IMG/VR virus record: IMGVR_UViG_3300033177_000056
Length of the DNA stretch: 14,462 nt
Origin: a virus
Reading direction: 5' to 3' (one strand)
Shown here: positions 1 through 14,462 of the stretch, piece after piece
Layout of the letters: every line of letters starts with the position of its first letter
How positions within the stretch are numbered: position 1 is the first letter of the stretch
Made by a program: the position numbers and the translations under genes
Notes under the pieces: generated by a model
What the model was told of the DNA's origin: nothing
Database searches by the model: none
What the model saw: only the letters and a program-made list of their open reading frames with translations

Positions 1-127
1 TACACCACCTGGTTGTCCGCCGGGTGTGCCTGATACATCCCATCGTTCAGCAGCTGCAGTATAAAGCTGGCCGCCGACGGATCCACCTCGATCGTCGATG
101 GATAATACCTGACCTCCTCCCCCCCGG
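1..127. repeat. Left copy of the exact 127-nt terminal direct repeat (identical to 14336-14462)
   Basis: Compared by eye: tacaccacctggttgtccgccgggtgtgcctgatacatcc...gacctcctcccccccgg occurs at both window ends. It lies inside the terL coding sequence, so it is an assembly or circular-permutation overlap rather than a non-coding LTR. Confidence 0.95.
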
Positions 128-1139
128 CCGGGGGCTCCGCCCCCGGCCAGGGTGTGCGCATCTCCGCGGGCGGGGTATAGGTATGACTCAGCCACGCCGC
201 CATATCACGTGAGTACTCGACATCAGTCTTCTGCCGCCCGGTAACGCTAGAATCCCAATAGTATTCGCGGGACGCGTACCAAGTCCCGTCCCGGTATCTC
301 TCCATCTGGACAAAGTAGGTAGGGTTCTTAGTACCGTAGTCTACGCCCACCCGGACCTCAACAGGAACAGAACCAACGGGCGGCGAGGATATGTGCTTGT
401 CACGAGCGAAGTTGGAGATGGCTAGACCCGACGCGGATCGCCAGAGACCCATGATGTTACGGTCATAGAACAGGGTGCCGGGAGGGTTCTCTCGAACGAT
501 CGCTTCCTTGTAAGACTGATCAAGATGGGGGTTGTCGGATAACGTGAACCTCCACGCGGCTATGTCGTCGGGTCCCTCGTCTACCCCGGGGAGGAGGGGC
601 GCGCCACACTCGCCGGCGGCTGCGGCCGCCGGCTCGCCGTTGCGGTCGTGTACCTTGCTCACGAATCTACGGTACAGGTAATGACTAGGAGGCCCCGGGT
701 TAAGGGTACCGATGATGGCAGCTCCAGGGTCGGACAGTCTGCTCAGGGCGGTCATGGTGAAGTTCTCGGGTACATGTAACCACTCGTCAACGTATACCCG
801 CCACAATGACTCACCCTCGATGCGCTTGTAGCTGTCAAGCTTGTCAGCTCCCTCGCACCAGATCTCCCTATTAAAGATGGTAAGCACTTTCGCTTGCCTT
901 TTGAAGTTGACGTAATCAGGTAGCAACTTTTTAATCTCACTCACTATGTTTCTCTCGATACTTGAAATGGTATTCCCAACAAGCAGCACATTACCATCAG
1001 GGTGTTCGAGCGTTTCCCATAGCATCTTGAGTACCTGAGCCATGGTCTTGCCACTACGCCAGCTCCCATACAGGATGTTAATCCGTTTCGATGGGGTCAC
1101 TAAATACTGGCCTTGCTTTCCTGTCGGTATCTGTAGCAT
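1..1139 (-). CDS. terL: Terminase large subunit, N-terminal and central part (continues across the circular junction into 14152-14335)
   Basis: The minus-strand frame is open from ATG 1139-1137 to base 1; I scanned every in-frame triplet and found no stop. It is absent from the ORF track only because it has no stop inside the window. Translation starts MLQIPTGKQGQYLVTPSKRINILYGSWRSGKT (Walker A GSWRSGKT). Later motifs are LWRVYVDEW (Walker B-like) and VGVDYG (nuclease Asp). Joined to the C-part it is 1323 nt, i.e. 440 aa plus stop. Confidence 0.9.
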   Translation of the reverse strand, partial: MLQIPTGKQGQYLVTPSKRINILYGSWRSGKTMAQVLKMLWETLEHPDGNVLLVGNTISSIERNIVSEIKKLLPDYVNFKRQAKVLTIFNREIWCEGADKLDSYKRIEGESLWRVYVDEWLHVPENFTMTALSRLSDPGAAIIGTLNPGPPSHYLYRRFVSKVHDRNGEPAAAAAGECGAPLLPGVDEGPDDIAAWRFTLSDNPHLDQSYKEAIVRENPPGTLFYDRNIMGLWRSASGLAISNFARDKHISSPPVGSVPVEVRVGVDYGTKNPTYFVQMERYRDGTWYASREYYWDSSVTGRQKTDVEYSRDMAAWLSHTYTPPAEMRTPWPGAEPPAGGEEVRYYPSTIEVDPSAASFILQLLNDGMYQAHPADNQVV

Positions 1140-1605
1140 TGTCCACCTGCACCTGCTGGAATATCTGCACGAGTCGATTCATAGCATGATCCTGATCATC
1201 ACCGGATTCGACTGCATACTTGTCCACGATAATCCCCATACAGATACACAGATCCTTGATATCCCGTGGACACAACTCCGGTCGAAGCAGCATCGCCTGG
1301 ACGCGATCCATCGCAAAACTCAGTGCTTCTTGCCGCTTCTCCGTCTTGATATATCTCGTATACGAATTCAGCCCATCCTCTAGCTCCGACTTCTTGGCCA
1401 GCAGCTTCTCTTGCATGGTCTTAGTCAGCATACCCTTGTGTTTCTCAGCCGCACGGATCACGAACCCGCGATCTCTTCCCAGCATCCGACCGATCTTGTT
1501 CGGGTTGATCCCCTGCACCAGATACTCCACGCACTTCAACTCCTCCTCCGGAGTGCTGGCCCTTCGCCGCCTAACGTTTTTCAGTTCTCTTTCTGGCTCT
1601 GTCAT
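1078..1605 (-). CDS. terS: Putative terminase small subunit / HTH DNA-binding protein (175 aa)
   Basis: It sits immediately upstream of terL and overlaps it by 62 nt. It has a basic N-terminus (RRRRAS), an HTH-like segment INPNKIGRMLGRDRGFVIRAAEKH, then a predicted helical region. SD GGAGGT lies 4 nt before the ATG. Confidence 0.55.
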   Translation of the reverse strand: MTEPERELKNVRRRRASTPEEELKCVEYLVQGINPNKIGRMLGRDRGFVIRAAEKHKGMLTKTMQEKLLAKKSELEDGLNSYTRYIKTEKRQEALSFAMDRVQAMLLRPELCPRDIKDLCICMGIIVDKYAVESGDDQDHAMNRLVQIFQQVQVDNATDTDRKARPVFSDPIETD

Positions 1606-1617
1606 CGTAGACCTCCG

Positions 1618-1630
1618 TTTCCACTGGAAC
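1618..1630. promoter_or_regulatory. Palindromic box TTTCCACTGGAAC (core TTCCA-N-TGGAA) in the terS 5' leader
   Basis: An exact 13-nt copy recurs at 1961-1973 and an inverted or variant copy at 1988-1998. This copy lies 13 nt upstream of the terS ATG, next to the SD. Confidence 0.5.
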
Positions 1631-1671
1631 TTTTGTCACCCCGCCCAGTTCTCCAGGCAGTGCCGAGATTT

Positions 1672-1947
1672 ATGGTAGAACCATGGTAGAACTGAACTCC
1701 CTATGGTAACTCCACAGAGGCGCTGCATAGCGTTATGGTACAAATGGTAGAAATGTGCGATGCTTAGTTTCCATACAGATTCATTGTACATATCTGTACA
1801 ACAGCTGCTGTACATAATTGTACAATGCCCTATACGAATTATTTCGCCATTATTTCTACCATTTGTACCATAACATACCATAAGGAATCTACTGATATCG
1901 ATTTCATCTATGGTAGAACTGAGAAAATCTATGGTAGAATGGTAGAA
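1672..1947. repeat. Iteron array: 9-mer ATGGTAGAA (often ATGGTAGAACT); putative replication origin
   Basis: Perfect direct copies at 1672, 1683, 1744, 1910, 1931 and 1939. One perfect inverted copy at 1854-1862. Degenerate copies at 1703 (atggtaac), 1735 (atggtac), 1865 (gtaccat) and 1875 (ataccat). Spacings of 11, 20-21 and 32 nt are close to helical multiples. The region is visibly more AT-rich than the rest of the genome. Confidence 0.65.
1782..1827. repeat. 46-nt quasi-palindrome with four TGTACA boxes symmetric about CAGCTG
   Basis: cattgtacatatctgtacaacag|ctgctgtacataattgtacaatg, with 19 of 23 arm positions complementary. TGTACA boxes at 1785, 1795, 1809 and 1819 are mirror-symmetric about 1804/1805. 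It sits between the direct and inverted iteron clusters. Confidence 0.7.
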
Positions 1948-1960
1948 CTTGAAAGGTCGA

Positions 1961-1998
1961 TTTCCACTGGAACTAGCCTCGAAATTCTCCAGTGGAAA
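1961..1998. promoter_or_regulatory. Second and third TTCCA-N-TGGAA boxes at the far edge of the origin-like region
   Basis: tttccactggaac at 1961-1973 is identical to 1618-1630. ccagtggaaa at 1989-1998 is its reverse complement. Confidence 0.5.
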
Positions 1999-2013
1999 TG
2001 GACCTTTGAAACC

Positions 2014-2027
2014 AAGTGCTAGCACTT
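2014..2027. terminator. Perfect 14-nt palindrome AAGTGCTAGCACTT just downstream of the primase-helicase stop
   Basis: The reverse complement of aagtgct is agcactt. It lies 25 nt 3' of the stop at 2052. It could be a hairpin or a protein-binding site; no clear T-run follows it. Confidence 0.25.
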
Positions 2028-2051
2028 CATTGGATAGATTCATAGGCAGTA

Positions 2052-4316
2052 TCAACTTCCACACCAGCTCGCCTTGGCTTTAATGTAACCCGGAGTTTCC
2101 TTCAAAGCGAGCTCTAGCTCTTCACTGGACGAGTTCGAAGCCAGCTTGATCCCATCGTAGTACTCGGCTGTCATGTCACGGGTCACCGCGATACCATGGG
2201 CACTCAACAGGTAGCGCCCGACCTTCCTCGGAGATAGCGCAAAGTAGCCGTACTCGGCACAGTATTCCTTGTACTCCTTGTGTAATTCGGCTCTCCGGAC
2301 CTTATATCGTTCACCCTTTATAACCCTGTAATCAACACTAATAAAAGTTTCCAGGCTATTACACGACAGCCTGTACTCCCTGTGCGTCACATCCGCACCG
2401 ACAGGCGGAGTTAGGCCGTGTTTGAGATACTCAGTGTAGCCTTGGATGCACCAGCGCAGGACAGCGCTAAGCTCGTTGTCTAGCTTGTTTCTAAGCATCC
2501 TGTCTATTCGCCCCTTGAAGCTGACGTGGAATGGAATGACCTTGATCCTATCCCAGGCGGCTGCCGTCGTTTCAGTGATCAGTGGCCTGGTGTTACCCGC
2601 GAGCCAGATCGTGGCCTGGGGGTTGAACTGGATCTCCTTCTGGTACAGGGACCTGGCCCTGATAGGGTCGCCGCCTGTCCACGGTTTCAGTACTTCCATA
2701 TTTAAAACAGCGTCATCTCCCGGCTCACCAGCGGAGATGAATCGCTTACCACGGAGGCTAACCAAATCATCGCGTATATCTCTGGAATTCTTCTTCCGAA
2801 GGAATGTGTCCATGTTAGCGTGGATGCCATACTCTCCGCACACACGACGGATGGTCGTCTGGAAGACGGATTTCCCGTTGTCTCCATCACCGGTCGCATC
2901 GTCACAGTAGAAGAAACATTTCTGGGACATGTCCCCTGAGATCCCGTAGCCCACGCATCTCTGGACCCAGTTCCTGATCTCCTCGTCGGGCCAGACCTCC
3001 GTGACGAACTTGTCCCACCGGGCGCCAGTTGCGTCGGGGTCCAGCTTACATCCTCCGATCAAGGTGATGTAGTCCTCGCGCTTAGGAGGATAGCTGGTTG
3101 CGTTTCTGAAGTCGACCGTCCCACCTTCGAATGTCATCTTCATAGGATCGGAGTCAAGCTCCGCGATGCTGATGGCGATGTCAGGATCCCGGGACGCGAG
3201 CGTGAGCATAGCGTTGCGGCCATGCAATGTGTCCGACGATTTGGCCCAGCACGGACCCTTCTCTTCACCGGAGTCTGGCATCAATGAGTATAGGTAGTCA
3301 ATCACCTCGTTTGCCATCGCGTGAATGGTGCTAGCAGCGTCCTCAGCCCATCTGTTGCCATCCCAGATGTACCAGGTCTTCGTCTGGCTGCAGTAGCGGA
3401 CATTCTCTCCGTGCAGCTTCTTGAACCGCAGTGCATTACCACCTTCGGTATTTTCGAAGTTGTCGCCCTTCGGTTGGATGTCTTGTATCATACCGACATC
3501 GATCATTGTCTGGCGGAGCTTAGACTTGTGATCGCGATAGATGTCAGCACACGCTATAACACCAGCGAGTAGGAGGATCAACGATTCCTTACCACCACCT
3601 CGCTGGCACGCATGGCAGAACCATACCTCGTCTTCGACGTTGATAGATAGGCACGTGCCGCTGACCGATCCATGACATGGGACCACTCCCTTCCATTCGT
3701 TGCCACCGCCTACGGTTGGTTCCCACTTGAAGTGCTCGAGGATCTCTGTTATGCTGAACTGGACTTTCCGCTTCATCATGTTCTCTATGGCTGTCTTCAA
3801 AGATACGTGCTTCTTCGCGTTGGTTGAGTAGCCTGAGAAGATGTCCACTAGCTCTGACACCGATAGCACGCGAACCGGCGCAGGATTGACGATTTCCCGT
3901 TTCCCCCCGCGCCAATTGGGGGAGTTGGGAGCTACCGCATTCGCACCGTTGGACTTGATCTCCGCGATCTTGATACCATCTTCGTTGAAGATATTGAACG
4001 GCCCCACGTGTAGCTCGGGGCACTTGTAGTAATAGTGCCTGCTAACATCACCGATGCCATCGGTCAGTGTCTCTGGCATCTTGGTATCGAATGCTGCTCG
4101 CCCATCGATGTTGTCGATGTCAATGACACAAGCTCCTCCGAACCCAGTGCAGATCCCATACGAGATGCCATCAGGAATCTCCGTCTCAGTGAACGAGTTG
4201 TTGATCGTGTTCCACTCCGCGCCGACAGGATTCTTCCCACTGTTCTTGTCACCGAGGACGACAGGCTTGAGCTTGGTGAACCTGAACCGCTGGCCTTTCA
4301 ACTGATCCGGGATCAT
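2052..4316 (-). CDS. Fused primase-polymerase (PrimPol) / CHC2-like zinc finger / D5-P4-type SF3 helicase (754 aa)
   Basis: N-terminal PrimPol motifs: GGACVIDIDNID (DxD), SRHYYYK, AEIKSNGANAVAPNS. Zinc finger: CHGSVSGTCLSINVEDEVWFCHAC. D5_N-like segment: GGNALRFKKLHGENVRYCSQTKTWYIWDGNRW. Walker A: GDGDNGKS. Walker B region: GKRFISAGEPGDD. Confidence 0.9.
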   Translation of the reverse strand: MIPDQLKGQRFRFTKLKPVVLGDKNSGKNPVGAEWNTINNSFTETEIPDGISYGICTGFGGACVIDIDNIDGRAAFDTKMPETLTDGIGDVSRHYYYKCPELHVGPFNIFNEDGIKIAEIKSNGANAVAPNSPNWRGGKREIVNPAPVRVLSVSELVDIFSGYSTNAKKHVSLKTAIENMMKRKVQFSITEILEHFKWEPTVGGGNEWKGVVPCHGSVSGTCLSINVEDEVWFCHACQRGGGKESLILLLAGVIACADIYRDHKSKLRQTMIDVGMIQDIQPKGDNFENTEGGNALRFKKLHGENVRYCSQTKTWYIWDGNRWAEDAASTIHAMANEVIDYLYSLMPDSGEEKGPCWAKSSDTLHGRNAMLTLASRDPDIAISIAELDSDPMKMTFEGGTVDFRNATSYPPKREDYITLIGGCKLDPDATGARWDKFVTEVWPDEEIRNWVQRCVGYGISGDMSQKCFFYCDDATGDGDNGKSVFQTTIRRVCGEYGIHANMDTFLRKKNSRDIRDDLVSLRGKRFISAGEPGDDAVLNMEVLKPWTGGDPIRARSLYQKEIQFNPQATIWLAGNTRPLITETTAAAWDRIKVIPFHVSFKGRIDRMLRNKLDNELSAVLRWCIQGYTEYLKHGLTPPVGADVTHREYRLSCNSLETFISVDYRVIKGERYKVRRAELHKEYKEYCAEYGYFALSPRKVGRYLLSAHGIAVTRDMTAEYYDGIKLASNSSSEELELALKETPGYIKAKASWCGS

Positions 4317-4807
4317 TCGCTACCACCAACGTAAAGCGCAACCGCGAGCGCAGCATCTATGACCCGCGGTATGTCGAGGAAGACATTATTCTTGCACAGC
4401 AAGTAGTTGTCAACCACAATTTCGGAAAGGACCTTCACGTTAGTGACAAGCTCCAGAGGAGGGATCGCATCAATAGCCCAGCCACATCGCCTGAGATTAT
4501 CCATCTGCAGCTTGCGTCTGACTGCCATCAGCTCTGCCCTGATGGCATCGGTCGTAGGAGAATATTCAGGTGCGTTCAGTACGACGTGCTGGAAGTGCAT
4601 CGATCGGATGGCAATATCTATCATCGCACTCTCATCGAAACAGAACTTGTGGGAGAGCTCTCTGAGCATCTCTTTCTCAGAGACCTCGTGCGATATTCTA
4701 TCACGCACGAGATCGCTGACGGTCCTACCGGACTCGGCAGCATCTCTCTTCAGCACTCGCATGTCGTCTTCGTCAACTCGTATGGTCAACCACTTCGATC
4801 TCGCCAT
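4313..4807 (-). CDS. Ribbon-helix-helix (CopG/Arc/MetJ-like) DNA-binding protein with an uncharacterised C-terminal domain (164 aa)
   Basis: The N-terminus KWLTIRVDEDDMRVLKRDAAESGRTVSDLVRDRI fits the RHH beta-alpha-alpha pattern. Its stop overlaps the primase-helicase start as ATGA (4316-4313). There is no SD; a TATA element is centred 27 nt upstream of the ATG. Confidence 0.7.
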   Translation of the reverse strand: MARSKWLTIRVDEDDMRVLKRDAAESGRTVSDLVRDRISHEVSEKEMLRELSHKFCFDESAMIDIAIRSMHFQHVVLNAPEYSPTTDAIRAELMAVRRKLQMDNLRRCGWAIDAIPPLELVTNVKVLSEIVVDNYLLCKNNVFLDIPRVIDAALAVALYVGGSE

Positions 4808-4824
4808 ACACTATGATGTGTGGC

Positions 4825-4843
4825 ACACCCTATATAAGGGTGT
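4825..4843 (-). promoter_or_regulatory. TATA-like box (minus strand TTATATA, 4837-4831) embedded in the palindrome ACACCCT-ATATA-AGGGTGT; putative promoter/operator of the RHH-primase operon
   Basis: Perfect 7-nt inverted arms at 4825-4831 and 4837-4843 with a 5-nt spacer. The TATA centre at 4834 is 27 nt from the A of the ATG at 4807. Confidence 0.5.
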
Positions 4844-4849
4844 TGCACC

Positions 4850-4920
4850 AGCGACTGGAAGAAGGCAGCGGCCCTTCGGGCTTCCCGCGCTGCGGCGCGG
4901 CGCTGCCATCTTCCGTCGCT
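4850..4920. other. 71-nt GC-rich Y-shaped (three-way junction) structure; candidate operon terminator, pac-type site or structured RNA
   Basis: The outer stem is 19 bp: 4850-4855/4915-4920, 4857-4862/4909-4914 and 4864-4870/4901-4907, with one bulge and one mismatch. It encloses hairpin gccc-ttc-gggc (4871-4881) and hairpin ccgcgc-tgcg-gcgcgg (4885-4900). Confidence 0.45.
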
Positions 4921-4988
4921 TCTCCAACCTTATTGATGAGCTGCGCTCCGGGGGTGCGTGGGGGGAAATATGTTGCTGATTGTGTCGG

Positions 4989-5237
4989 TCATAGAACAGC
5001 CATTCCTACCCCGATGGTCGCGGCAATCGCTATCACGCCACCCGCTGCGTATATGATGATGGTATGTCGCCAGACAGTTCCGTGAAGGTTGGACACCTCA
5101 CCGCGCATGGCAGCGAGGTTGGCGTCTTGCGCAGAGAACGAGTCATGCATGTCTGACCGGAGTCGAGATACTTCTGCTCGAATACTATCCATACTACCCT
5201 GGATGGCATTTAGTGTATTAAGTATCTGGTCGTTCAC
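4989..5237 (-). CDS. Small coiled-coil protein with a C-terminal transmembrane anchor (82 aa); function unknown, possibly holin-like or egress-related
   Basis: The C-terminus HTIIIYAAGGVIAIAATIGVGMAVL is hydrophobic. The N-terminal 55 aa look helical or coiled. The GTG start overlaps the upstream stop as GTGA (5237-5234), with GGTGGTGG upstream. Confidence 0.55.
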   Translation of the reverse strand: MNDQILNTLNAIQGSMDSIRAEVSRLRSDMHDSFSAQDANLAAMRGEVSNLHGTVWRHTIIIYAAGGVIAIAATIGVGMAVL

Positions 5238-5578
5238 TCGTCCACCACCGGAGCTAGGAACAGTGTCCTCATCGGGAGTTCCCCGTCGACGAGTGGCTCT
5301 GTTGTGAAGTTTAGTACCATGTAAGTAACGCCATCGAGCTTAAACGTATACAGTGGTCCGCCGGTGTGTGTGCGCGACGAGTCTATTTCTTCGTCAGTAA
5401 TGACCTCGACAGTCGACACGGTGAGCCTGCCGGCGTAGCTCATGACCTGCTGGTTCTTCCTGGTCCACCGAACCCAGATGATCTTCTGCCATCCAGGGAT
5501 AACCTCCACATACCCGCCAGCTCCCCGATGGGTAGCCTCCTTGATAGAGACTACCTGTTGGGTAAGATACTCATTCAT
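5234..5578 (-). CDS. Putative head-closure / head-tail joining protein (114 aa from ATG 5578)
   Basis: ATG 5578-5576 overlaps the upstream stop as ATGA and is preceded by GGTGAT. Its small beta-rich sequence (VVSIKEATHRGAGGYVEVIPGWQKIIWVRW..) and its position after the adaptor resemble SPP1 gp16 / HK97 gp9-class proteins. The ORF-track start at 5638 lies inside the upstream gene. Confidence 0.4.
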   Translation of the reverse strand: MNEYLTQQVVSIKEATHRGAGGYVEVIPGWQKIIWVRWTRKNQQVMSYAGRLTVSTVEVITDEEIDSSRTHTGGPLYTFKLDGVTYMVLNFTTEPLVDGELPMRTLFLAPVVDE

Positions 5579-6375
5579 ATGATCACCGCGTGGTCCAGGA
5601 AGTATCCTCGAAGCAACGTGACCGCAATGCTGGACCACATGGAATCGGGATCCTTGCCGACGAGCTCCTCGTGTAGACCGTCTTTGCCCATGGAGAAACT
5701 CCTAACTCCGTCTTGTCGCAGCCGGGCTCGGCGGGTGTCACCATACTTTAACATGACAAGAGCTTCCTCGCAACACGCCATCTTGACTACCAGTGGGACC
5801 TCGCCATCTCCCTCCCACTTCTCTGTCACGGGGTTGTAGAACTCCCGGGGGAACGCGTTGGTCTGTTCGCTGTCTACTTTCCGGCCACCGAACGGGAGCA
5901 TGTTGATCTTCCTGGTGGCCTCGCGCAGCAGGGGGAGACGCAGCCCAAGCCTGCTAGGAACGGGGTCAACTCCACCGTACAGATACGTCTTAGGAGTTTG
6001 GGCGATAAGCTCCGTGCCGTCGCCGGCGGACTCTGCTACAACGAGGGCAGCAGCATTTGCGTTTGCAGCTATCTGTGCGATCACGTCATCGTGGTCGGCG
6101 TCTTCACCATATTCGACTATGATACTTCGCCCGATGACGGATACCATCTCACCGAACTCCGCTGGTTCGAGCCTGACGTTGATCAGGTTGCCTTCAGCAC
6201 CTTCGGTGACCGCCGTGATAATCAGTGGCATGTCGGTCGATTCGACGGTGTTGCAATACATGTACGCAGCAGAGCCTTCCTCACCGGCGGAGAACCAGTC
6301 TAGTGCATACGGTTTGTTCTCAGGATCGAAGTACTCGTTCGCTTCGCTGAGCGTAGCATATTCTTCTGTAATCAT
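5575..6375 (-). CDS. Putative head-tail adaptor (gp6 / DnaT_2-like) with an inserted ~100-aa domain (266 aa from ATG 6375)
   Basis: The N-terminus [16 protein letters not shown] and the C-terminal [36 protein letters not shown] match the '..FPR....vP..v..A..e.A' pattern of head-tail connector/adaptor families. There is an ATGA overlap at 6375-6372. Confidence 0.5.
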
Positions 6376-7952
6376 GTTACCCATCCTACTAGATTGATAA
6401 TGGAGGACCCGTTGCCACCACGACTAAACGAAAACCGTTGTGATGCATTGGCTATAATGTACTGTTGATCGTTCGCGATCTGGGTTCCCCCGCGGTTGAT
6501 GTCGTGTGATGAACTCCCACCGTACTTACGGAGCCGCGTGGTGCCAGTCGATATGGTGAGCTTGTGAACTAAGATGATGGCAACAGCGCCTGCTGGGACG
6601 TTATTTGACACATCGACATCAACGAACGTGTTGCCAGCTCCGGACTGGGATCGGAACGTCACTGTGTCTCCGTTAGCCCAATTGTCTGCACTCGACACTG
6701 TAGTAACTGTATATGGCCCGGTCGCGACGTTTGTAGCAATGCGGAATGAATCCCGGGTGGAGTTGTAAACGAGAACCCTGCATGTGCCCTCGGGCATAAC
6801 TCCGGCTCCAGCCAACACGAAGCTCGTAGAGGTAGGATTACCGCTGATCGTAGTAGACAACACGTCGCTCGACGATCCAGCGATATACAGCACCTGAACT
6901 GGAGTTGCCAGGAGCTCCATGCCTCCACTGCCGGACGGTATATCACTGATCCGCATCCTGTAGTAGTCGCCGTCCCTGGCTACAAGAATGTAATCTCCGT
7001 CGTCGTAACCAGTGGTCCCAAGCCACCACATGTCATCGTCGTCTGCAGAACCAGTGGGTCCGGTGGGGCCGCTAGGCCCGGTCGGCCCGGGAACCGTGGA
7101 CGCGGCACCAGTCGGTCCTGTCGGTCCTGTCGGACCCGGTACGGTGGACCCAGCTCCGGTTGGCCCGGTGGGGCCAGACGGTCCAGTTGGTCCCTGACCG
7201 CCGATCGACGACATGAGTTGCCACCATTCGGCATCAGGCGGTTCCTTGTTTAGACAGTTGTCTTTGATACAAACGTAACTTGAACCACCACGGTTGACAG
7301 AGTCCTTCTTGTTATAGGTGGTACCACTGTCCCATGCGCCTAGGAACTCCAGGGCCCCTGCTTCGCCCTGAGCTCCGGTGGGGCCGGTCTTGCCGGTAGG
7401 CCCAGTTGGGCCAGTCACGGTAGAGTCAGCTCCAGTGGGTCCTGTTGCTCCTGCAGCGCCTGCAGCTCCGGTTGGGCCAGCGGGACCCGCCACGAGAGGA
7501 AGCTGACTAACCTGTGCCCTGAAGTAATCCCCGCCCCCATACCCGTGGATCCAGTCGTCAACAGATATGTCGCCGATCAGAACGTCTGCATCCATGAACG
7601 CCCCGCCACCGCCCCCTCCGGCAGGACCGGTAGCACCGGCTGGGCCGGTAGCACCTGTGGGACCTGTAGGGCCACCACCAAGTAGAGACGCTACTTGTGA
7701 CAAAGTGGCGGATCCGTAATACTTGGTCGAACCAATGTAGAATCCAACAAGAATCTTGTCGGTGGAATCAAGGGGCGCCACTGGGTCCAGGGTGAGGAAG
7801 TCGTCGTCGGGAGCACCACCCCCCCCAGCACCAGCTGGCCCGGTGGGTCCGGTCGATCCTGTCGGTCCCGATGGTCCGGTAGGTCCGGTGCGACCCCACG
7901 AGTCGTCGGTATGCCACTCGTTGCCATGTTGCCCGGGAAGGTCAGTCATCAT
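6372..7952 (-). CDS. Multi-domain collagen-like fibre protein (526 aa from ATG 7952): four G-X-Y segments, a CBM5/12-like module and a C-terminal beta-rich domain
   Basis: GPTGPxG runs lie at nt 7815-7892, 7602-7676, 7356-7490 and 7050-7202. The segment [38 protein letters not shown] (about 7212-7343) resembles a CBM5/12 chitin/carbohydrate-binding motif. There is an ATGA overlap at 7952-7949. Confidence 0.8.
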
Positions 7953-8974
7953 CCACCCCATATACCGCCCCAGCTACTGGCGGCTCCGATTTCCTCTTCT
8001 GACCCGAACGTACCCCATGCAGGTTCGTCTGCTATATATTTACGAGCGATGACCCAGAACACGTCTTCGGTGAACTGGGGGTAAGAACCGTACTTGGAGA
8101 ACTGGAACCCGAGCTTGTCGGCTCCTGACGCAGTGACGCCATTTATGGGTTTGAAACTCTCTGATACAAGTTCGATAGTGTAGTCGTTGCCGACCTTGGT
8201 TATACGATAGATGCCGGGGTACCAGGCGGCACTCTTGGATGTCGTGTACGCGAAGAATTCGTGTCCTGTATCGGACTTGGTAGACCCGGCCCATACGTAT
8301 GAGTAAGGGGAGCCATACGTAAGGTGGCTGGCCGACCCATGACCGTCGTCCGCCATCGATGCTACCAGACACTTCTCATTGCTGTCGTGGATAACCATGC
8401 CGGCGAGGCCCATCCCATGGGAACTTCCCGACCCGCCTGGGTGATATATAGACATGCTGTACTCGATGATTACGTTGGTGGGGATCGTCCATTTAGCAGT
8501 TAGCTGGTATGCGCCTTGGCCGGAGTTGCTGGGCCAATCACCCGGGTGACCAGTAACCCGGAGCTTACCACCACTTACAGACGACGTTAAATTATTGTTC
8601 TCCCACTTGTCTCCATCGAGGCTGGTCCCGGGGAAGTAATCGGCAAACTCGAACGTGTCGTCTGGATCAGACACATCGGTTGCTTCCGCGTCCCCGTAGT
8701 AAATATAATAATCCATCGCAGACGTAGCAACGTCTAGTCTGATCCAGAAACGCTGATATGTTGAATCACCGTATTCGGGGTCGCGTGCAAATGAAAGAGA
8801 GGTGCCAACCGAGTCCTTAAACAAGATGTCGTCTGGGAAACTCTCGCACTTGTCAGCAAGATGGACTTTTGTAGCAGTGTCGGTGCCGGTGCCTTTGTAG
8901 ACGTCGATCCACTTCTGGTACCCAGCTTGAGCAGCGTCTGCAGCTCCCAGCGGAAGTTTACGACGGTACTTCAT
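7949..8974 (-). CDS. DUF2341-like plus concanavalin-A/LamG-like domain protein (341 aa from ATG 8974); probable receptor-binding or virion-surface protein
   Basis: [20 protein letters not shown] resembles the DUF2341 signature (..YYGN..). It is followed by [16 protein letters not shown]....GGKLRV, typical of LamG/ConA-like jelly-rolls. There is an ATGA overlap at 8974-8971. It sits between the two fibre genes. Confidence 0.55.
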
Positions 8975-9717
8975 AGGAACGCCTTCCACTTATAGGGGTA
9001 ATCATCCGATGCCTTGATGTATACATTGGTAGCATCAGCACGAACCGTCACTGTACAATCATCGTCCTCGTCATCTCCGAGGGGGATGACTGCGACAAAC
9101 GGGGTGCCATTGAGCCCGTGAGCGATGGTCTGGAGGCTACCGGTGCCTTCAGACGTTCCGCCGGTAGCAGCAGAAAAGATCTCTGCTCCAGTCGGTCCTC
9201 GATCTCCAGTTGGTCCAGTTGGTCCAGTCGGTCCAGCCACGGTTGAATCGGCGCCAGTTGGTCCTCGATCTCCAGTTGGTCCTGTCATACCAGCTGGTCC
9301 GGTCGGTCCGGTCGGCCCCGTAGCCCCTCCCCCGCCAGCTCCGCCTGCCTGCATGACGAACTTGGTTCCGTCGTACACAAGGGCATCACCGACCTCCGGA
9401 GATGCAGTGGATACGGGGATCCCGGCGATCGACCGAACTCCATAGGGTTCATCGAGGGGGACGAGCGTATGCCACTCGTCACCCTCATACCAGTAGATCT
9501 CCCTGGCTTCCTTGTCGATCACTATGTTACCGGGTACCGGGTCTGCCGGCTTAGCTCCAACGATCGGGCGAAGAGGAGAGTCCGGGTCAAAGAATCCAGC
9601 TTGACGAACGCGCTCGACCGCCTCGTCGAAAGTTGGGGAAACCCGCCCGTGGAGCTCCGCGTAAGTGAGCGGCCTCTGAATCAAATTACGAAGGAGAATA
9701 TCTTCTGTAGTTACCAT
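8971..9717 (-). CDS. Collagen-like fibre protein (248 aa)
   Basis: [54 protein letters not shown] (nt 9187-9345) is flanked by globular N- and C-terminal domains. GGAGG lies 7 nt upstream of the ATG. Confidence 0.8.
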
Positions 9718-10738
9718 CCAATGCCTCCATCAATCTCTCCAGCATATTGGCACAACTATACCTGGATGCGTTTATAGACCCCTTTTCGACTATATCAGGG
9801 GGGGTTTCCAGGGCTAAAAGTACCTTATCGTGAATCTGCTTGTGGTCGAACGGATTGACCGTTAGCTCAGGGTAGCAGACACGGGCGGCCTCACAAGTAA
9901 CCGATGCGACCGTCGGGACGCCAAGCGCCGCAGCATCAACGACGCCTCGGCCGTAAGTGTAGTCTGGAGTTAGATCGAGGTTGATGGTAGCGCGAGACAA
10001 CAACGTTTCAATATACTGTTGATAATCGTGAGTAGGTACCACCCGATCAAACAGGGTCTCAAGATCTATTGTAGGAGGAATCTTGCCCGATACTCCGACG
10101 AGGAACCGCTTTAGTTTGATCGGGTGTAAACTGTAATAATAAGCTGACCACGTTGCGTGGTAGCGATGATACTGACACGTGGCCAGAGGCGGGTCAAACT
10201 TGGTCGCCCGCTTGCGGACAATCTCCAGGGCCTGTGTGTCGACTGGGTGAGGAATATGAAAAACCTTTCGATTGAGGTACCGCTCTAGCATGAAGGCACC
10301 GTACTCTTCGACATGGAATACGAGATCGGCGAGATCTAATTGTCGCTTCATCGTACGGGGTTCGATCGTCTCCCACATGCTGAGTGCATAGTCGATGTTT
10401 GCGATAATCTTGGTATCACTGTTACCGAGCGCCGAGCGAACGGCCTCGATGTAATGGGGATGGCCTGGAGTGTAGTTCACGTGGATGATGTCGTACTGCT
10501 CCAGGTAATCCCGTTCCAATGTGCAATACTCTTCTCCGACATGACCTGCTTTCCGGAAAGCGGTGAGCCATGACCTTATCCCAGACTGTATCAGCGGACC
10601 ACGGTAGATGGTGGGAATTGCATGGCAGCATATAGGAAGGGATGAATCGCTGTCCACCGAGATCACTTTTCTGCAGCTGGGACAGTACGCCTCATACTTA
10701 TCCGGAGTAAGGGGGCCGGAGAAGAGTAGATACTTCAT
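9686..10738 (-). CDS. GT-B fold glycosyltransferase (GT1/GT4-like), 350 aa from ATG 10738, with an N-terminal Cys-rich insert
   Basis: MKYLLFSG (Rossmann start), [35 protein letters not shown] and [30 protein letters not shown] follow the canonical GT4 pattern (..E.fG...lEAma.G.PVvas). The insert is [21 protein letters not shown]. There is an ATGA overlap at 10738-10735; the ORF-track start at 10843 lies inside the upstream gene. Confidence 0.6.
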
Positions 10739-11151
10739 CTGCTCTTGAACCCCATTACGCTTCCAGCGATCAGATAGTTGGACGAGTGCCCATGGGCGAT
10801 ATCCACTTCTATGGTGCCCTTCTTGTCGGCATCCTTCACCCACTTGAACCGCGCAGTCTCGAGCGGACCGAGAACTACTACGGATGCGTAGGTGGACAGG
10901 TCGCCGGTCGGCCGGCGCCAGGTGTAATCTCCAAGTCCAGACCTGGGTCCATCACCCGCTTTGACGGTGATACCATCGCTGGTGGAAGCCCCAGTAAGAT
11001 CGAACCGGAGCCAGAGGGCATCGTCGACATCACCAGACTCGATGACGAGACCGCTGGTGCTGGTGAACGTCTTTGGTGCAGCTATCTCATAGCCCATCTC
11101 GGGATCAGCAGCATACCCAAGATCAACGAAGGGGATCGGTGCTCTTGCCAT
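10735..11151 (-). CDS. Hypothetical beta-rich protein directly after the capsid gene (138 aa); possible capsid decoration or accessory protein
   Basis: The ATG is 1 nt after the MCP stop, with AGGTGA upstream. I recognise no motif; the suggested function rests on position only. Confidence 0.35.
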   Translation of the reverse strand: MARAPIPFVDLGYAADPEMGYEIAAPKTFTSTSGLVIESGDVDDALWLRFDLTGASTSDGITVKAGDGPRSGLGDYTWRRPTGDLSTYASVVVLGPLETARFKWVKDADKKGTIEVDIAHGHSSNYLIAGSVMGFKSR

Positions 11152-11152
11152 T

Positions 11153-12055
11153 TTAACTCACCTTCCTGCAGATCAGCATGGCAAGGGCATCCGGCCTGGC
11201 GACCTTGGCACCATACACATGGAGTCCCTTGACAGCATCTGCAAATCTCTTCTGAGGTCTATATGCCTCAACCTTGTTAACGCTGTCCGCGAAAGTCGTA
11301 GCAATTGGGGTGCCCGCTATTACATACGTCTGGGTCTTGGCCGACTCTCCGCCGGTCCCTGCACCGGTCGGGACGTTGTTACTTTCGAGAATATCGAAGC
11401 CAGCAGCACGCTTAACGAGACCGTTGAGCAGTGCATCCGTAGACGTGCTAGCAGCAGCATCGGAGAACCTCGGGTCACCAGACAGGCGCTCAACGAACCA
11501 GGGAGGTACAATAGCCCACCGACCCTGCTTGGGAACGTTGGCCTCAGACAGAACGGTACCAAGCTCCAGGAGATAATCCCATGCGGTGAGCTTCGTGCCG
11601 GCTTCGTCGGGCCGGAGATCCGGGACCTTAGCCGCGGCGGTCGTTCCGATAACGTTGCCAGCAGGCACGCTCGCCTTCATTATGCCAGCGATGTACTGGT
11701 CAGCAACGTCTGCAAGGTTATACGCGGACTGTTGCATAGCTCCGTTCATTAGGGTCGGTGCAGTCTGTGCCTGGTCGATATCATCGACAGCGAAGTTGAA
11801 GTATTTAGCCTGGGTGATCGAGAGCACACTCTGGGAGTCCTCGAGGGCCTCGGGGTCGGTTATGTCAGCGTCCTTGGTATAGTCACCGATGGTGATATCA
11901 CCGACAGACGTGATCTTAACCGTGCTGCCCTTGCCCTTGATCTCCCCCTCGTAGTCCCGATTGATCACGTTAGGCTGGCCGTACACGAGCGCCTTGTTGA
12001 GATTCTCAAGAAGTCTTGCGCTCCAGATGGTGGGAATGAATCCGTCAACTGCCAT
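11153..12055 (-). CDS. Major capsid protein, HK97 fold (P22-coat / N4-gp56-like family), 300 aa
   Basis: FIPTIWSARLLENLNKALVYGQPNVINRDYEGEIKGKGSTVKI and the C-terminal KGLHVYGAKVARPDALAML are characteristic of this capsid family. It directly follows the scaffold gene (TAA then ATG). Confidence 0.85.
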   Translation of the reverse strand: MAVDGFIPTIWSARLLENLNKALVYGQPNVINRDYEGEIKGKGSTVKITSVGDITIGDYTKDADITDPEALEDSQSVLSITQAKYFNFAVDDIDQAQTAPTLMNGAMQQSAYNLADVADQYIAGIMKASVPAGNVIGTTAAAKVPDLRPDEAGTKLTAWDYLLELGTVLSEANVPKQGRWAIVPPWFVERLSGDPRFSDAAASTSTDALLNGLVKRAAGFDILESNNVPTGAGTGGESAKTQTYVIAGTPIATTFADSVNKVEAYRPQKRFADAVKGLHVYGAKVARPDALAMLICRKVS

Positions 12056-12532
12056 TTATTTCACCGTACCTGCTTTCAACTGTGCAGATATATTTTCCCA
12101 ATCCGCGTTGACCTGTTCGGGTGTCATGGACTTTAGCTCCTGCGCGGTGTAGACGCGGGGCGGTGTGTTGGTAGTCCCTGGATTGGTGACTCCACCTACA
12201 GCGGTTTGCTTGACTCCTAAACTGGCCACCAGCTTGTCGGCACTGGCGGCCATCTCCTCCTTCGTTGATCCAACGACAAACTCGACCAACTCCGTGGGGA
12301 GTCCCTTGGCTGCGGCAATCTCTGCTCGCGTTCGCGTTACGGCAGACTGCGCCAACTCCCCCTCCAGCTTGGCGAGGGCGGCCCGCTCAGAAACAAGTTT
12401 CTCCTCCAGGTTAGTTATCCGCTTAAGAAGATCAGGGTCCATAGCGTTACGCGCTTCTCTGTCGCGAGCTAGACGTTCCTGAACTATGCGGTTAACATCT
12501 TCCTGTGTAAACTTCCTATCGTCTTCTGCCAT
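12056..12532 (-). CDS. Capsid scaffolding protein (DUF4355/GP20-like), 158 aa
   Basis: The FTQEDVNRIVQERLARDRE motif, coiled-coil character, C-terminal MTPEQVNADWENISAQL and its position between portal and MCP. Confidence 0.8.
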   Translation of the reverse strand: MAEDDRKFTQEDVNRIVQERLARDREARNAMDPDLLKRITNLEEKLVSERAALAKLEGELAQSAVTRTRAEIAAAKGLPTELVEFVVGSTKEEMAASADKLVASLGVKQTAVGGVTNPGTTNTPPRVYTAQELKSMTPEQVNADWENISAQLKAGTVK

Positions 12533-12586
12533 AATGCACCAACCTTAACGGCGGTTGTAACCTACACTGTATTATCGGGTTGAACA

Positions 12587-12600
12587 TATTTAAACTTTCG
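12587..12600 (-). promoter_or_regulatory. Archaeal-type BRE/TATA-like element: minus strand CGAAAG-TTTAAATA; putative promoter of the scaffold-capsid-fibre operon
   Basis: The minus strand reads ccGAAAGTTTAAATAtg, and the portal stop TAA lies within it. It is about 58 nt upstream of the scaffold ATG, which predicts a ~30-nt leader carrying GGTtGGTG. Confidence 0.5.
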
Positions 12601-14020
12601 GAACCAGGTCTGCCCTGGCCTGGCCCGCGTACTCAGACTGTTCTCGAGGGGGCTCGCCGATCTCCAGGGCTATGCGGACAAGCTCCGCCCTTGCCTCGGC
12701 CTCGGTGCATTCGTCAAGCCGCCGTATGGCACTCTCCTTGCTGGTCAGCCCGGAGTTCTTCCTGGCCTGTTCTATACGGGCGTCCTCGAGCACGTCGCGG
12801 GGCAAACCGTCGTTGAACTTGATCTTGTCTATCTTAACCTCGATAGCTCCAGGTATCCTACCGATTACATCCAGTTTCGAAGCGGCTTGTAAAGCGCGGC
12901 GGAGTGGAGTCTCAAACGCCAGTCTGATCCGGTTGGTACGACTGATCGTCCTCACCAGCAGCCGGCGCCACGCGGATCCGGTAACCGCCTGACCGGTCGG
13001 GAACCGGCCGAGAGCAGCGGGAGATAAGTCAGTAACATGATACAACATGTCCGTAATAACCTCCATCTCCTTGAAACTCGACGTGAGCTTGCCGTCCCAC
13101 TCGATGTACTGGGGGGGCTGGGCATCTCCACGAAGAGGGATGTAGCGGCCGTGGATCGAAACCTTGCGGGTACCGTCGGTCGGGTTGGTTTCAATCATAC
13201 TGTCTGGACCGGCCATTATGGGGCGGCTATGGATGTCAAGCACGTTCATGATGCGGACCATCCTGGACTCCAACTCCTTGACCAGATTGGCCATCACTTC
13301 GAAATCGGAAGTGCCGTACACATCTCCGCGTCGTCTGGAGTTGATGGCATAAAACACCAACGGATAACCTATGGAGTGGTGCTGGATTGGCTGGACGCCA
13401 ACATACTTCACGCTCATGTCCAGAGGGACCTGGTGATCGATGGTGTTGCCGTTCATCCACCAGAGCTGGTGCTCGACCGAATCGTCCCTGTGGATCTCCA
13501 CCTTGAGCAGCCTCGCGTGAGCTCCGCCTATCTGCTCGGTGAACACCCAGGCCAGAACATGCGCCCTTATATTAGTGACGTCATCGGGATCCACGATAGG
13601 GAACCAGATGCTCGGGTCAACATACCCTATCCGACTACCGCCATTGAACGACACCGAGTAGACACACTCGCCGAACTTGCAGTAATCTCTCGCAAGGTTG
13701 TGAAGCTCCTGGTACAGGTTGCTCCGGTCAACGATAGCTCCAAGCCCGTCCGGGAGGATGGGAGCTTCGCCAAACATGTAGTCAGCATATATGTCCGCCT
13801 CGACATGGAACCAGTTGAAGTCCAGAACCTTCGGGGCGCCGAGGGACTGGAGCATCATGTCAGCACGTTCAAGGTCAGTCATGGACCAGAGCTCCGGCCA
13901 CAACTTCTGGTGATCACCGTCGTACATCATCTGGTATTTCTCGTACCGCCTGAGCCGATCGTTCTCCTCGGGAGGGGGGAACTGCTTGGTCGGGGCTAGC
14001 CAGGACAGATCTGTCAGCAT
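12590..14020 (-). CDS. Portal protein (476 aa)
   Basis: Its size, its position between terL and the scaffold, and the N-terminal PPPEENDRLRRYEKYQMMYDGDH resemble SPP1-gp6-type portals. Confidence 0.8.
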   Translation of the reverse strand: MLTDLSWLAPTKQFPPPEENDRLRRYEKYQMMYDGDHQKLWPELWSMTDLERADMMLQSLGAPKVLDFNWFHVEADIYADYMFGEAPILPDGLGAIVDRSNLYQELHNLARDYCKFGECVYSVSFNGGSRIGYVDPSIWFPIVDPDDVTNIRAHVLAWVFTEQIGGAHARLLKVEIHRDDSVEHQLWWMNGNTIDHQVPLDMSVKYVGVQPIQHHSIGYPLVFYAINSRRRGDVYGTSDFEVMANLVKELESRMVRIMNVLDIHSRPIMAGPDSMIETNPTDGTRKVSIHGRYIPLRGDAQPPQYIEWDGKLTSSFKEMEVITDMLYHVTDLSPAALGRFPTGQAVTGSAWRRLLVRTISRTNRIRLAFETPLRRALQAASKLDVIGRIPGAIEVKIDKIKFNDGLPRDVLEDARIEQARKNSGLTSKESAIRRLDECTEAEARAELVRIALEIGEPPREQSEYAGQARADLVPKV

Positions 14021-14043
14021 ACTGGTTATTATACCTCTGATGG

Positions 14044-14050
14044 TATTTAA
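14044..14050 (-). promoter_or_regulatory. TATA-like box (minus strand TTAAATA) centred 27 nt upstream of the portal ATG
   Basis: The geometry matches the RHH gene: TATA centre at 14047, ATG at 14020, and no correctly spaced SD. A bacterial-looking TATAAT (14033-14028) is also present, so the reading is ambiguous. Confidence 0.4.
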
Positions 14051-14065
14051 GGCCGCTTGGGTCGG

Positions 14066-14072
14066 AAAAAAA
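14066..14072 (-). terminator. T7 run (minus strand) after terL without a preceding hairpin; archaeal-style oligo-T terminator candidate
   Basis: The minus strand reads ccccaaaTTTTTTTccgacc, about 80 nt 3' of the terL stop. I could fold no stem-loop immediately upstream. Confidence 0.4.
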
Positions 14073-14075
14073 TTT

Positions 14076-14151
14076 GGGGTTATGTTGGTGTGTGTGGTGA
14101 TGGTGTGCGTGCTACCTACTTGTTATGCTGTGCCGTGTTGCGGTGTGTGCC
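14076..14151. other. Strand-asymmetric G+T-rich (plus strand) / C+A-rich (transcribed strand) low-complexity tract between terL and portal
   Basis: ggggttatgttggtgtgtgtggtgatggtgtgcgtgctacctacttgttatgctgtgccgtgttgcggtgtgtgc has 60 of 75 bases as G or T by my count. Confidence 0.6.
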
Positions 14152-14462
14152 CTAGACGATGCTGTTAACAACATACCGCAATCCGTCTATAGGGTGGTCA
14201 TCCTCCTTCACCACCTGGTCGTCCGTGCTTGATTCGTCCCACTCGTAGTTCTCGATGCAATGTATCAGCCAAGGTACATTCCAAGTAAGTTTCAGCTTAC
14301 CAGTTTCAAGCATAGATGCAATGTGCCTGATACCATACACCACCTGGTTGTCCGCCGGGTGTGCCTGATACATCCCATCGTTCAGCAGCTGCAGTATAAA
14401 GCTGGCCGCCGACGGATCCACCTCGATCGTCGATGGATAATACCTGACCTCCTCCCCCCCGG
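14152..14462 (-). CDS. terL: Terminase large subunit, C-terminal (nuclease) part; 14336-14462 duplicates bases 1-127
   Basis: ORF-track entry 14152..14421 continues in frame upstream to the window end (..VRYYPSTIEVDPSAASFILQ..). The frame matches the 1-1139 segment after subtracting 14,335. It carries a C-terminal DDHPIDGLRY motif typical of terminase RNaseH-like nucleases. Stop TAG is at 14154-14152. Confidence 0.9.
   Translation of the reverse strand, partial: GGEEVRYYPSTIEVDPSAASFILQLLNDGMYQAHPADNQVVYGIRHIASMLETGKLKLTWNVPWLIHCIENYEWDESSTDDQVVKEDDHPIDGLRYVVNSIV
14336..14462. repeat. Right copy of the exact 127-nt terminal direct repeat (identical to 1-127)
   Basis: Same as the left copy. 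Confidence 0.95.

Follow-up and report, generated by a model that had tools for sequence, protein, structure and literature searches.

How a DNA of little more than 14 kb that encodes its own head and its own terminase can be a complete genome, and what kind of element such a genome represents, are the questions raised by IMG/VR record IMGVR_UViG_3300033177_000056, a sequence of 14,462 nt to which we refer, at its full length, as the window. A first-pass annotation made from the sequence noted that the two ends of the window are identical for 127 nt, concluded that the overlap closes the window into a complete 14,335-bp replicon, and took that replicon for a remarkably small head-tail virus. 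The window is one arbitrary linearisation of a 14,335-bp circular-mapping genome. Its genes specify a head, DNA packaging, the head side of a neck, fibres and DNA replication; genes for a tail tube, a tape measure and lysis were sought and not detected. As a whole, the element is best explained, with somewhat better than even probability in our judgement, as a capsid-forming, tail-less and probably helper-dependent element that is maintained as an episome.

Self-comparison of the window found bases 1–127 and 14336–14462 to be identical, 127 nt being the longest prefix that equals the suffix, and every factual element of the annotation's account of the overlap and the circle was correct. An exact match of this length cannot be a chance event. 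The first copy (1–127) lies inside terL, where it encodes residues 338–380 of the large terminase; the second (14336–14462) is redundant, and its removal leaves the 14,335-bp unit. When the exact portal protein of the window was looked up, it was found in 22 contigs. Three complete MEGAHIT contigs (k141_ names), from different ENA assemblies, are 14,476 bp long with a 141-nt end overlap, i.e., the 14,335-bp unit plus a k of 141; they have 0 mismatches to the circle and start at window positions 7587, 3056 and 9116. Two more 14,476-bp contigs begin at 811 and 11074. A second 14,462-bp contig from the Joint Genome Institute (JGI), Ga0334887_1003795 of metagenome 3300033169, begins at 11188, and a 14,490-bp JGI contig begins near 178. 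Eight full-length assemblies accordingly have eight breakpoints (1, ~178, 811, 3056, 7587, 9116, 11074 and 11188), and the unit length is 14,335 bp in every complete copy. A 200-nt string placed over the junction 14335|1 is uninterrupted in all nine loci examined (L001–L009), among them a Logan contig and one linear contig of 11.6 kb. Identical 14,335-bp circles were obtained with two assemblers from several samples; the closure itself is real and independently reproduced, and all copies of the genome found are free 14.3-kb units. Two assemblies, L004 (Logan SRR10872661) and L009 (ENA ERZ27252292), do not close. Both break inside the replication module, L004 lacking window 2775–2953 and L009 lacking 1504–4264, and the remainder differs by at most 2 bases. 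Strain variation or repeats in the replication module may account for these breaks.

Because the overlap changes in length with the assembler's k, falls at arbitrary positions and leaves a constant unit, it is an artefact of de Bruijn assembly on a closed path, as the first-pass annotation had proposed; for the window's own assembly, k was presumably 127. That the genome is complete and circular-mapping, and its overlap made by the assembler, we hold to be nearly certain. Short biological terminal repeats also look like exact direct repeats at contig ends, and on that ground the 127 nt might be taken for a true terminal repeat, in direct orientation, of a linear DNA molecule with ends at window 1 and 14462. 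Such a molecule is very improbable, given that the repeat is 127 nt in one assembly and 141 nt in the k141 contigs, that eight breakpoints occur while the unit stays at 14,335 bp, that the second 14,462-bp JGI contig begins at 11188, and that the supposed ends would lie inside the essential terL gene and split its codon 380. We give even less credence to a spurious closure, i.e., to a window that is chimeric, is part of a longer genome or was excised from a larger prophage. Some relatives of the window's major capsid protein (MCP) do sit in prophages of 30–40 kb; on the other side stand the identical circles from two assemblers and several samples, the absence of host genes, the confinement of genes to one strand over ~95% of the circle, the closure of relatives at 12.9–15 kb, and the failure of the whole circle, in a nucleotide search of 50,697 phage records, to match any deposited phage. 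A chimera and a genuine 127-nt terminal repeat were among the outcomes that the annotation had named as refuting it; for practical purposes the independent assemblies, with contigs that span 14335|1, exclude both, as well as a fragment, and support a complete unit genome without host flanks. An exact end overlap equal to the assembler's k is a reliable sign of a complete unit genome and is silent on physical ends: the same assembly would result from a closed circle, from headful-packaged permuted linear DNA and from linear DNA whose terminal repeat exceeds k.

The circular map restores the terL gene. On the minus strand, its open reading frame (ORF) opens with the ATG at 1139, reaches base 1 and, still in frame, resumes at 14335 to end in a stop codon at 14152–14154, a total of 440 codons for amino acids, with the junction splitting codon 380. 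The linear window breaks the gene in two, with 379 codons in the N-terminal part and an 89-aa ORF at 14152–14421 for the C-terminal part, and in the other assemblies TerL is called as one intact 440-aa protein. The segment 1–1139 (codons 1–380) encodes the ATPase domain and the start of the nuclease domain; 14152–14335 (codons 380–440 and the stop) is in frame with it across 1|14335 and encodes the C-terminal nuclease motif. TerL matches Pfam Terminase_3 and Terminase_6N and NCBIfam TIGR01547, the PBSX family (127.8 bits, the cut-off being 105), and it aligns over its full length with the solved TerL of phage D6E (5OE8/5OEA; E 4e-38). Aligned with D6E are a Walker A motif (GSWRSGKT), a Walker B motif (VYVDE) and the nuclease motifs VDYG, VDPSAASF and DDHPIDGLRY. 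The statement that terL is intact only across the junction and yields a 440-aa terminase with Walker A, Walker B and nuclease motifs was therefore borne out by the ORF, the Pfam and NCBIfam matches and the alignment with D6E TerL. Two insertions in TerL are absent from D6E in the alignment: a Pro/Gly/Ala-rich segment, PPAEMRTPWPGAEPPAGGEE, at residues ~320–345 between nuclease motifs, and a further one, EPAAAAAGECGAPLLPGVDEGPDD, after the ATPase domain. The terL and portal genes are separated by a 131-nt gap (14021–14151).

The closest relatives of the window's TerL are PBSX-family TerLs of phages with Gram-positive hosts and that of phage D6E. No explicit statement about the end type of those phages was found in the papers searched; the packaging mode of the element may be headful. 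Upstream of terL, and overlapping its start, is a gene for a 175-aa protein (1078–1605) that is the candidate small terminase subunit, TerS, by its position and a helix-turn-helix (HTH) domain. The gene is directly upstream of terL in 28 related loci, and HTH domains were found in 10 of 18 members of its family. The 175-aa protein itself gave no TerS family match, and a single-sequence AlphaFold2 (AF2) model was all-helical and of low confidence, with a predicted local distance difference test score (pLDDT) of 61, too poor for a fold search. The family is very rare, an exhaustive search of 1.84 billion representatives finding 8 homologous clusters.

What else does the circle encode? Fifteen genes, all on the minus strand, cover ~95% of it (overlaps counted twice), and their stop and start codons mostly overlap or abut. 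In the order of transcription, the circle reads: a ribbon-helix-helix (RHH) protein, a primase-helicase, an iteron-rich region, the TerS-like protein, TerL, portal, scaffold, MCP and a 138-aa protein, followed by a glycosyltransferase, a 248-aa fibre protein, a 341-aa protein, a 526-aa fibre protein, an adaptor, a 114-aa protein and an 82-aa protein. The HK97-fold MCP, the portal and the large terminase, which are hallmarks of the Caudoviricetes, are all present by Pfam, NCBIfam and PDB matches. The portal is an SPP1-type protein of 476 aa (12590–14020; Pfam SPP1_portal), 24–26% identical to portals of Terrisporobacter, Paenibacillus and Clostridium phages. It is followed by a 158-aa scaffolding protein (12056–12532; Pfam DUF4355, capsid assembly scaffolding protein Gp46, E 6e-10) and by the 300-aa MCP (11153–12055; Pfam Phage_capsid_4, Phage_capsid_2 and P22_CoatProtein). 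The 138-aa head-associated protein (10735–11151) belongs to phrog_24894, a family of unknown function, and its gene comes after the MCP gene in 99 loci, small and full-size alike.

The neck of the element is partial. A 266-aa protein with an N-terminal extension of ~150 aa (5575–6375) is an Ad1-type head-tail adaptor (phrog_477, E 3.7e-5; Pfam DnaT_2, E 1.2e-6), and members of its family match phrog_477 more strongly (L019, 1.8e-10; L098, 1.5e-24). The order of genes in L098, a Thermoanaerobacterium prophage, is MCP, Ad1 adaptor, a 98-aa connector of phrog_793, Neck1/tail completion and then tail genes, namely a phrog_2595 connector, a major tail protein, a chaperone and a 1210-aa tape measure. 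The 114-aa protein of the window (5234–5578), in the stopper or head-closure position, matches a hidden Markov model (HMM) grown from the 98-aa connector of L098 (E 4e-8), and its gene is kept downstream of the adaptor gene in 36 loci. HMMs of the relatives' next three proteins, Neck1/tail completion, the phrog_2595 connector and the major tail protein, found nothing in the window, even at E 10. Because the 114-aa protein matches the connector and the next three models find nothing, what the window retains of a siphovirus-type neck is exactly the head side, with nothing of the tail side. Searches of the window with Pfam, PHROGs and NCBIfam, permissive thresholds included, found no integrase, endolysin, tail tube, tape measure, baseplate or nozzle; nozzle, knob, tail-hub and ejection proteins and an endolysin domain were absent even at Pfam E ≤ 1. 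None of the window's ORFs could encode a tape measure, and no holin family was matched. Full-size prophages such as L098, whose MCPs are 50–54% identical to that of the window, carry a full siphovirus tail module, and for this reason the lack of tail genes in the window is meaningful. From the gene content we consider it quite probable that the element is a tail-less former of capsids. The last gene of the series (4989–5237) encodes an 82-aa protein with a coiled-coil N-terminus and a hydrophobic C-terminal segment; it has no significant family match and is possibly a membrane or holin-like protein. With the 114-aa and 175-aa proteins as queries, a word-indexed database returned the query itself or nothing; for the 175-aa protein, not even the query came back.

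Between the conserved head protein and the adaptor is a block for surface proteins. The 248-aa protein (8971–9717) has collagen repeats and matches PHROG tail-fibre families; the 341-aa protein (7949–8974) is a LamG-like DUF2341 protein (Pfam, E 3.5e-12); and the 526-aa protein (6372–7952) has collagen repeats (Pfam Collagen), with Gly-X-Y DNA repeats at 7042–7897, a match to the tail-fibre family phrog_5073 at E 7e-28 and a weak match to BclA. In all, three window proteins match PHROG tail-fibre families. Residues 1–122 of the 248-aa protein form an anchor domain. This domain was sought in large phages, as a possible baseplate-docking domain in common with a helper, and was found only in small elements, where it is conserved in contigs of the window's own clade (below); that restriction suggests that the fibres dock on the element's own particle. 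Next to the fibre genes, inside the structural module, lies the gene for a 350-aa GT-B (GT4-like) glycosyltransferase (9686–10738), flanked by the conserved head protein gene on one side and the three collagen/LamG fibre genes on the other. Its AF2 model (pLDDT 91) matched PglA, BshA and PimA in Foldseek at E ~1e-10, and Glyco_transf_4 was found in 12 of 25 homologues. A 385-aa ORF after the MCP gene had been a candidate for a tail or nozzle protein; it was rejected on its GT-B fold by AF2 and Foldseek and on the Glyco_transf_4 domain of its homologues. PDB sequence searches with the 385-aa ORF, a fibre protein and the adaptor gave nothing useful. One relative (L019, 2396–3499) has an extra glycosyltransferase of GT-A type, a beta-1,4-glycosyltransferase, between its portal and scaffold genes. 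The arrangement in the window suggests glycosylation of the virion or of its fibres in a 14-kb genome.

Relatives of the MCP are numerous, with ~280 in IMG/VR and >550 in GTDB genomes. In a midpoint-rooted neighbour-joining (NJ) tree of MCPs, ~70 loci on short contigs, here called mini-elements, formed a single clade of tail-less elements of 12.9–15.6 kb, the window among them. None of the mini-elements in this clade has a Neck1 homologue, which is present in many full-size prophages outside it; many have a D5 helicase and a stopper-like gene. The closest relatives of the window, with MCPs 73–84% identical to its own, share the fibre block and often the glycosyltransferase. A sister group of four loci (L021, L032, L033 and L090), which are IMG/VR contigs and one Dehalococcoidia metagenome-assembled genome (MAG) contig, has MCPs 69–70% identical, lengths of 14.3–14.5 kb and the window's set of head and neck genes; homologues of the fibre proteins and of the glycosyltransferase were not found in it. 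L033, the member of this group that was annotated, encodes a tyrosine integrase and a MuF-like protein, with an HTH regulator on the opposite strand, and the group looks to have the layout of a capsid-forming satellite. A variable lysogeny region lies at the contig ends in all four. Mini-elements further removed from the window have genes for a D5 helicase, MuF, regulators of the HTH or RHH type and accessory functions, and none for a tail. Closure recurs in the clade: L130 has an exact 99-nt overlap that defines a 13,800-bp unit, and IMGVR_UViG_3300037067_000271 (L011, L173, L175), at 28,416 bp, consists of ~1.9 head-to-tail copies of a 14,938-bp unit that is 100% identical in another sample (L174). 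Three loci (L010, L013 and L052) wrap onto copies of themselves that are 87–97% identical and are probably strain mixtures. The database lengths of the 28,416-bp entry and of these three overstate genome size.

These comparisons bear on the claim that very few complete head-tail virus genomes are so small, which was not supported in that form: dozens of relatives of 13–16 kb are already in IMG/VR and in MAG bins, tailed-phage genomes of 11.6–14.5 kb have been published, and tailed phages assembled from gut metagenomes show a minor peak at 12.6 kb (PMC7762592). A genome of 14.3 kb is rare among isolates and is not rare among metagenomic genomes. Among cultured tailed phages the smallest are Rhodococcus RRH1 (14.3 kb), Mycoplasma P1 (11.7 kb) and Salmonella astrithr (11.6 kb), isolated viruses that were classed as Siphoviridae or Podoviridae (PMC7762592). 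Like them, the window has a Caudoviricetes-type head and a size within what is predicted for capsids of T=3 or T=4. We assume that each of the three cultured phages has its own tail genes; in the window no tail module is detectable. The annotation's view of the window as a remarkably small complete head-tail virus is correct as to completeness, and head, packaging, head-side neck and fibre genes are present; it is not supported for want of the tail-side neck, tube, tape measure, nozzle and lysin. The missing tail and lysis functions most simply explain the small size of the genome.

Known satellites offer closer parallels. The phage-inducible chromosomal islands of the capsid-forming kind (cf-PICIs), such as EcCIEDL933, resemble the window in having TerL, portal, capsid, adaptor, connector and a primase-replicase, and in that neither a tail tube, a tape measure nor a lysis cassette was detected. 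Their size, roughly 10–15 kb, is also similar. The definition used for them is that of SatelliteFinder, which asks for TerS, TerL, portal, capsid, adaptor and connector of the island's own, for an integrase, a regulator and a primase, and for the absence of tail and holin, its "forbidden components" (PMC10085698). A cf-PICI is an integrase-bearing island in a chromosome, whereas no ORF of the window has an integrase domain and the window is a free circular-mapping unit; cf-PICIs have an AlpA, MerR or Stl regulator and an HNH protein, whereas the window has only the RHH protein and no HNH; and the window, unlike cf-PICIs, carries fibre proteins and a glycosyltransferase. Its lineage differs as well, with a PBSX-type TerL and an MCP common to prophages of Bacillota, Chloroflexota and Acidobacteriota. 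Having fibre matches, and neither an integrase, a regulator of the cf-PICI type nor an HNH protein, the window should not be classed with the cf-PICIs.

The closest analogy is offered by two Streptomyces satellites, MulchRoom and MiniFlayer. MulchRoom, at 14.8 kb, encodes an integrase, lacks fibres and relies on long tails that it steals; MiniFlayer, at 17.4 kb, lacks an integrase, carries fibre genes immediately ahead of the adaptor gene and attaches to the neck of its helper (PMC10690885). MiniFlayer is like the window in the absence of an integrase and in the fibre or "adsorption" block between a small gene next to the MCP gene and the adaptor gene, and MulchRoom is like the sister group, which has no fibres and in which an integrase was seen (in L033). 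The order of head genes in the two satellites (terS, terL, portal, scaffold, MCP) is that of the window, whose TerS-like gene takes the place of terS. The differences are that they have no primase, the window encoding a P4-type primase-helicase of 754 aa; that terminal repeats of 1.0–1.6 kb were measured for them; and that their environment and probable host are not those of the window. Satellite P4 itself shares with the window a primase-helicase of the P4 family (TIGR01613), a small genome and possibly a plasmid-like, non-integrated state; the plasmid state of P4 is mentioned in the literature (PMC10690885). P4, however, has no capsid, portal or terminase of its own and uses the head proteins of P2, and the window encodes all three. 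On the best reading, the element is analogous, not homologous, to the cf-PICIs and to MiniFlayer.

We propose, with odds modestly in favour, that the element is a helper-dependent satellite. It would replicate as an episome from its own origin, make its own small capsids, and use its own terminase to package its DNA from concatemers; a co-infecting siphovirus would supply what it lacks, a tail, lysis or both. Alternatively, it might ride on the helper by means of its own fibres, as MiniFlayer does. Several considerations weigh against a satellite of this kind. Helper dependence is proposed from gene content, and no helper was identified. The three fibre-like proteins, with their clade-restricted anchor domain, could form a minimal tail of the element's own, and divergent nozzle, ejection or lysin domains could reside in the unannotated C-terminal parts of the fibre proteins or in small ORFs. 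Three traits of the cf-PICIs (integrase, AlpA/MerR/Stl regulator and HNH) were not found in the window, and the PHROG tail-fibre matches were. No match below E 0.01 came from a tblastn search with all window proteins against MiniFlayer and MulchRoom (OQ357865 and OQ784832). The NJ tree of MCPs is a simple one that carries no support values, and the basis for naming the 175-aa protein TerS is position and an HTH domain only.

The chief competitor is an autonomous, minimal podovirus-like virus in which adaptor, stopper ring and three fibres make a short tail and unrecognised proteins see to lysis and delivery; if so, the genome would truly be among the smallest of complete head-tail virus genomes. 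Much about the window is in keeping with such a virus: the tail-fibre matches reach E 7e-28, the restriction of the anchor domain to the mini-element clade suggests attachment to its own particle, there is no integrase or lysogeny module, replication and packaging genes are its own, the hydrophobic C-terminus of the 82-aa protein could belong to a holin, and the genome recurs as a discrete unit in a series of anaerobic-digester samples. The neck, however, is of the Ad1/connector type that in full-size relatives is followed by tail completion, tube and tape measure, and no nozzle, knob, tail hub, ejection protein or endolysin turned up even in the most permissive Pfam search. Moreover, the whole MCP clade is without tail genes, with a sister group laid out like a capsid-forming satellite, and the podovirus-like look of MiniFlayer, with its fibres, shows that fibres do not imply autonomy (PMC10690885). 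We judge an autonomous virus to be unlikely, though a serious contender, at about one chance in several, and prefer a helper-dependent, capsid-forming element.

The RHH protein, the primase-helicase and the iteron-rich region make up a plasmid- or P4-like replication module. The 754-aa primase-helicase (2052–4316) combines Prim-Pol, D5_N and a P4-family C-terminal/helicase region (Pfam Prim-Pol, D5_N and DUF5906; TIGR01613, E 2e-51). Between its gene and that of the TerS-like protein is an iteron-rich, lower-GC region (1606–2051) that is probably the replication origin, judging by its repeats. Nine copies of ATGGTAGAA/ATGGTACAA lie within 1672–1947; the window as a whole has 12 matches against 2.5 expected, a number that none of 200 shuffles reached. 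A perfect 23-nt inverted repeat is found at 1732–1754/1852–1874, and the region also holds three copies of TCCAGTGGAAA and four of TGTACA. The same region is possibly a pac site. In SaPI (Staphylococcus aureus pathogenicity island) and PICI replicons, origin-like iterons adjoin the replicase gene, as they do here. JGI calls a 135-aa ORF in this region that is missing from the ENA gene calls, and an ORF here, "g142", is probably spurious.

The only sizeable intergenic region, read from the sequence, is at 4808–4988. It has a GC-rich imperfect hairpin (GGAAGATGGCAGCG...CGCTGCCTTCTTCC) and then an inverted repeat, CACCCT-TATAT-AGGGTG, which stops 17 nt before the ATG of the RHH gene, its TTATATA core stopping 23 nt before; these are a candidate terminator and a candidate promoter/operator. 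The RHH gene (4313–4807), the first after this region, encodes a CopG-like regulator of 164 aa (Pfam RHH_1, E 1.2e-5) and has no Shine-Dalgarno motif. The region looks like the one promoter/operator from which a transcription unit spanning the full circle would start.

A series of anaerobic-digester samples yielded the genome again and again as a discrete unit, and IMG 3300033169, a metagenome that holds an identical genome, is from the Wageningen anaerobic digester (PMC10159854). As to the host, relatives of TerL are found in phages of Actinomycetota and Bacillota, those of the portal in phages of Bacillota, and those of the MCP in prophages of Bacillota, Herpetosiphon (Chloroflexota) and Acidobacteriota. 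GTDB MAG contigs of the family (L090, L091, L106, L112, L113, L130, L155 and L157) range from ~5.7-kb fragments to 16-kb near-complete units. Family MAG contigs were binned with Dehalococcoidia, Anaerolineales, Azonexus, Methanothrix/Methanotrichaceae, Clostridia, Synergistetes and Lacrimispora. Since the binning of 14-kb contigs is unreliable, these taxa are weak evidence of host, and the contigs may be mis-binned mobile elements. CRISPR spacers of both Anaerolineales and Methanosarcinales are reported to target viruses in the Wageningen digester data set in which this genome occurs (PMC10159854). A Methanothrix, i.e., archaeal, host was suggested by the TATA-like palindrome, the apparently leaderless first gene and the Methanothrix MAG bins. 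It found no support beyond these hints; most genes have Shine-Dalgarno-like motifs, and the relatives of TerL, portal and MCP in phages and prophages of Bacillota, Actinomycetota, Chloroflexota and Acidobacteriota also speak against it.

In sum, a genome that is small and complete should not be equated with a minimal autonomous virus before its tail and lysis genes have been checked. The clade to which the window belongs looks like another independent origin of capsid-forming satellites. We put forward tentatively, at somewhat less than an even chance, that it is an undescribed, widespread and apparently monophyletic lineage of 13–16-kb capsid-forming, tail-less satellites in anaerobic communities, of which the window's sub-lineage exchanged integrase and lysogeny genes for episomal life and gained an "adsorption" module of glycosyltransferase and collagen fibres. 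If so, the sub-lineage would be an independent repeat of the transition from MulchRoom to MiniFlayer, a non-integrating satellite that decorates stolen tails or rides its helper. The glycosyltransferase gene beside collagen-like fibre genes would point to possible glycosylation of the virion in a very small genome. Helper dependence, if true, would mean that uncultivated anaerobic-digester communities hold a further lineage of capsid-forming satellites without homology to known ones and a second natural switch from integrase to fibre module, and how non-integrating satellites stay with their helpers would become comparatively testable.

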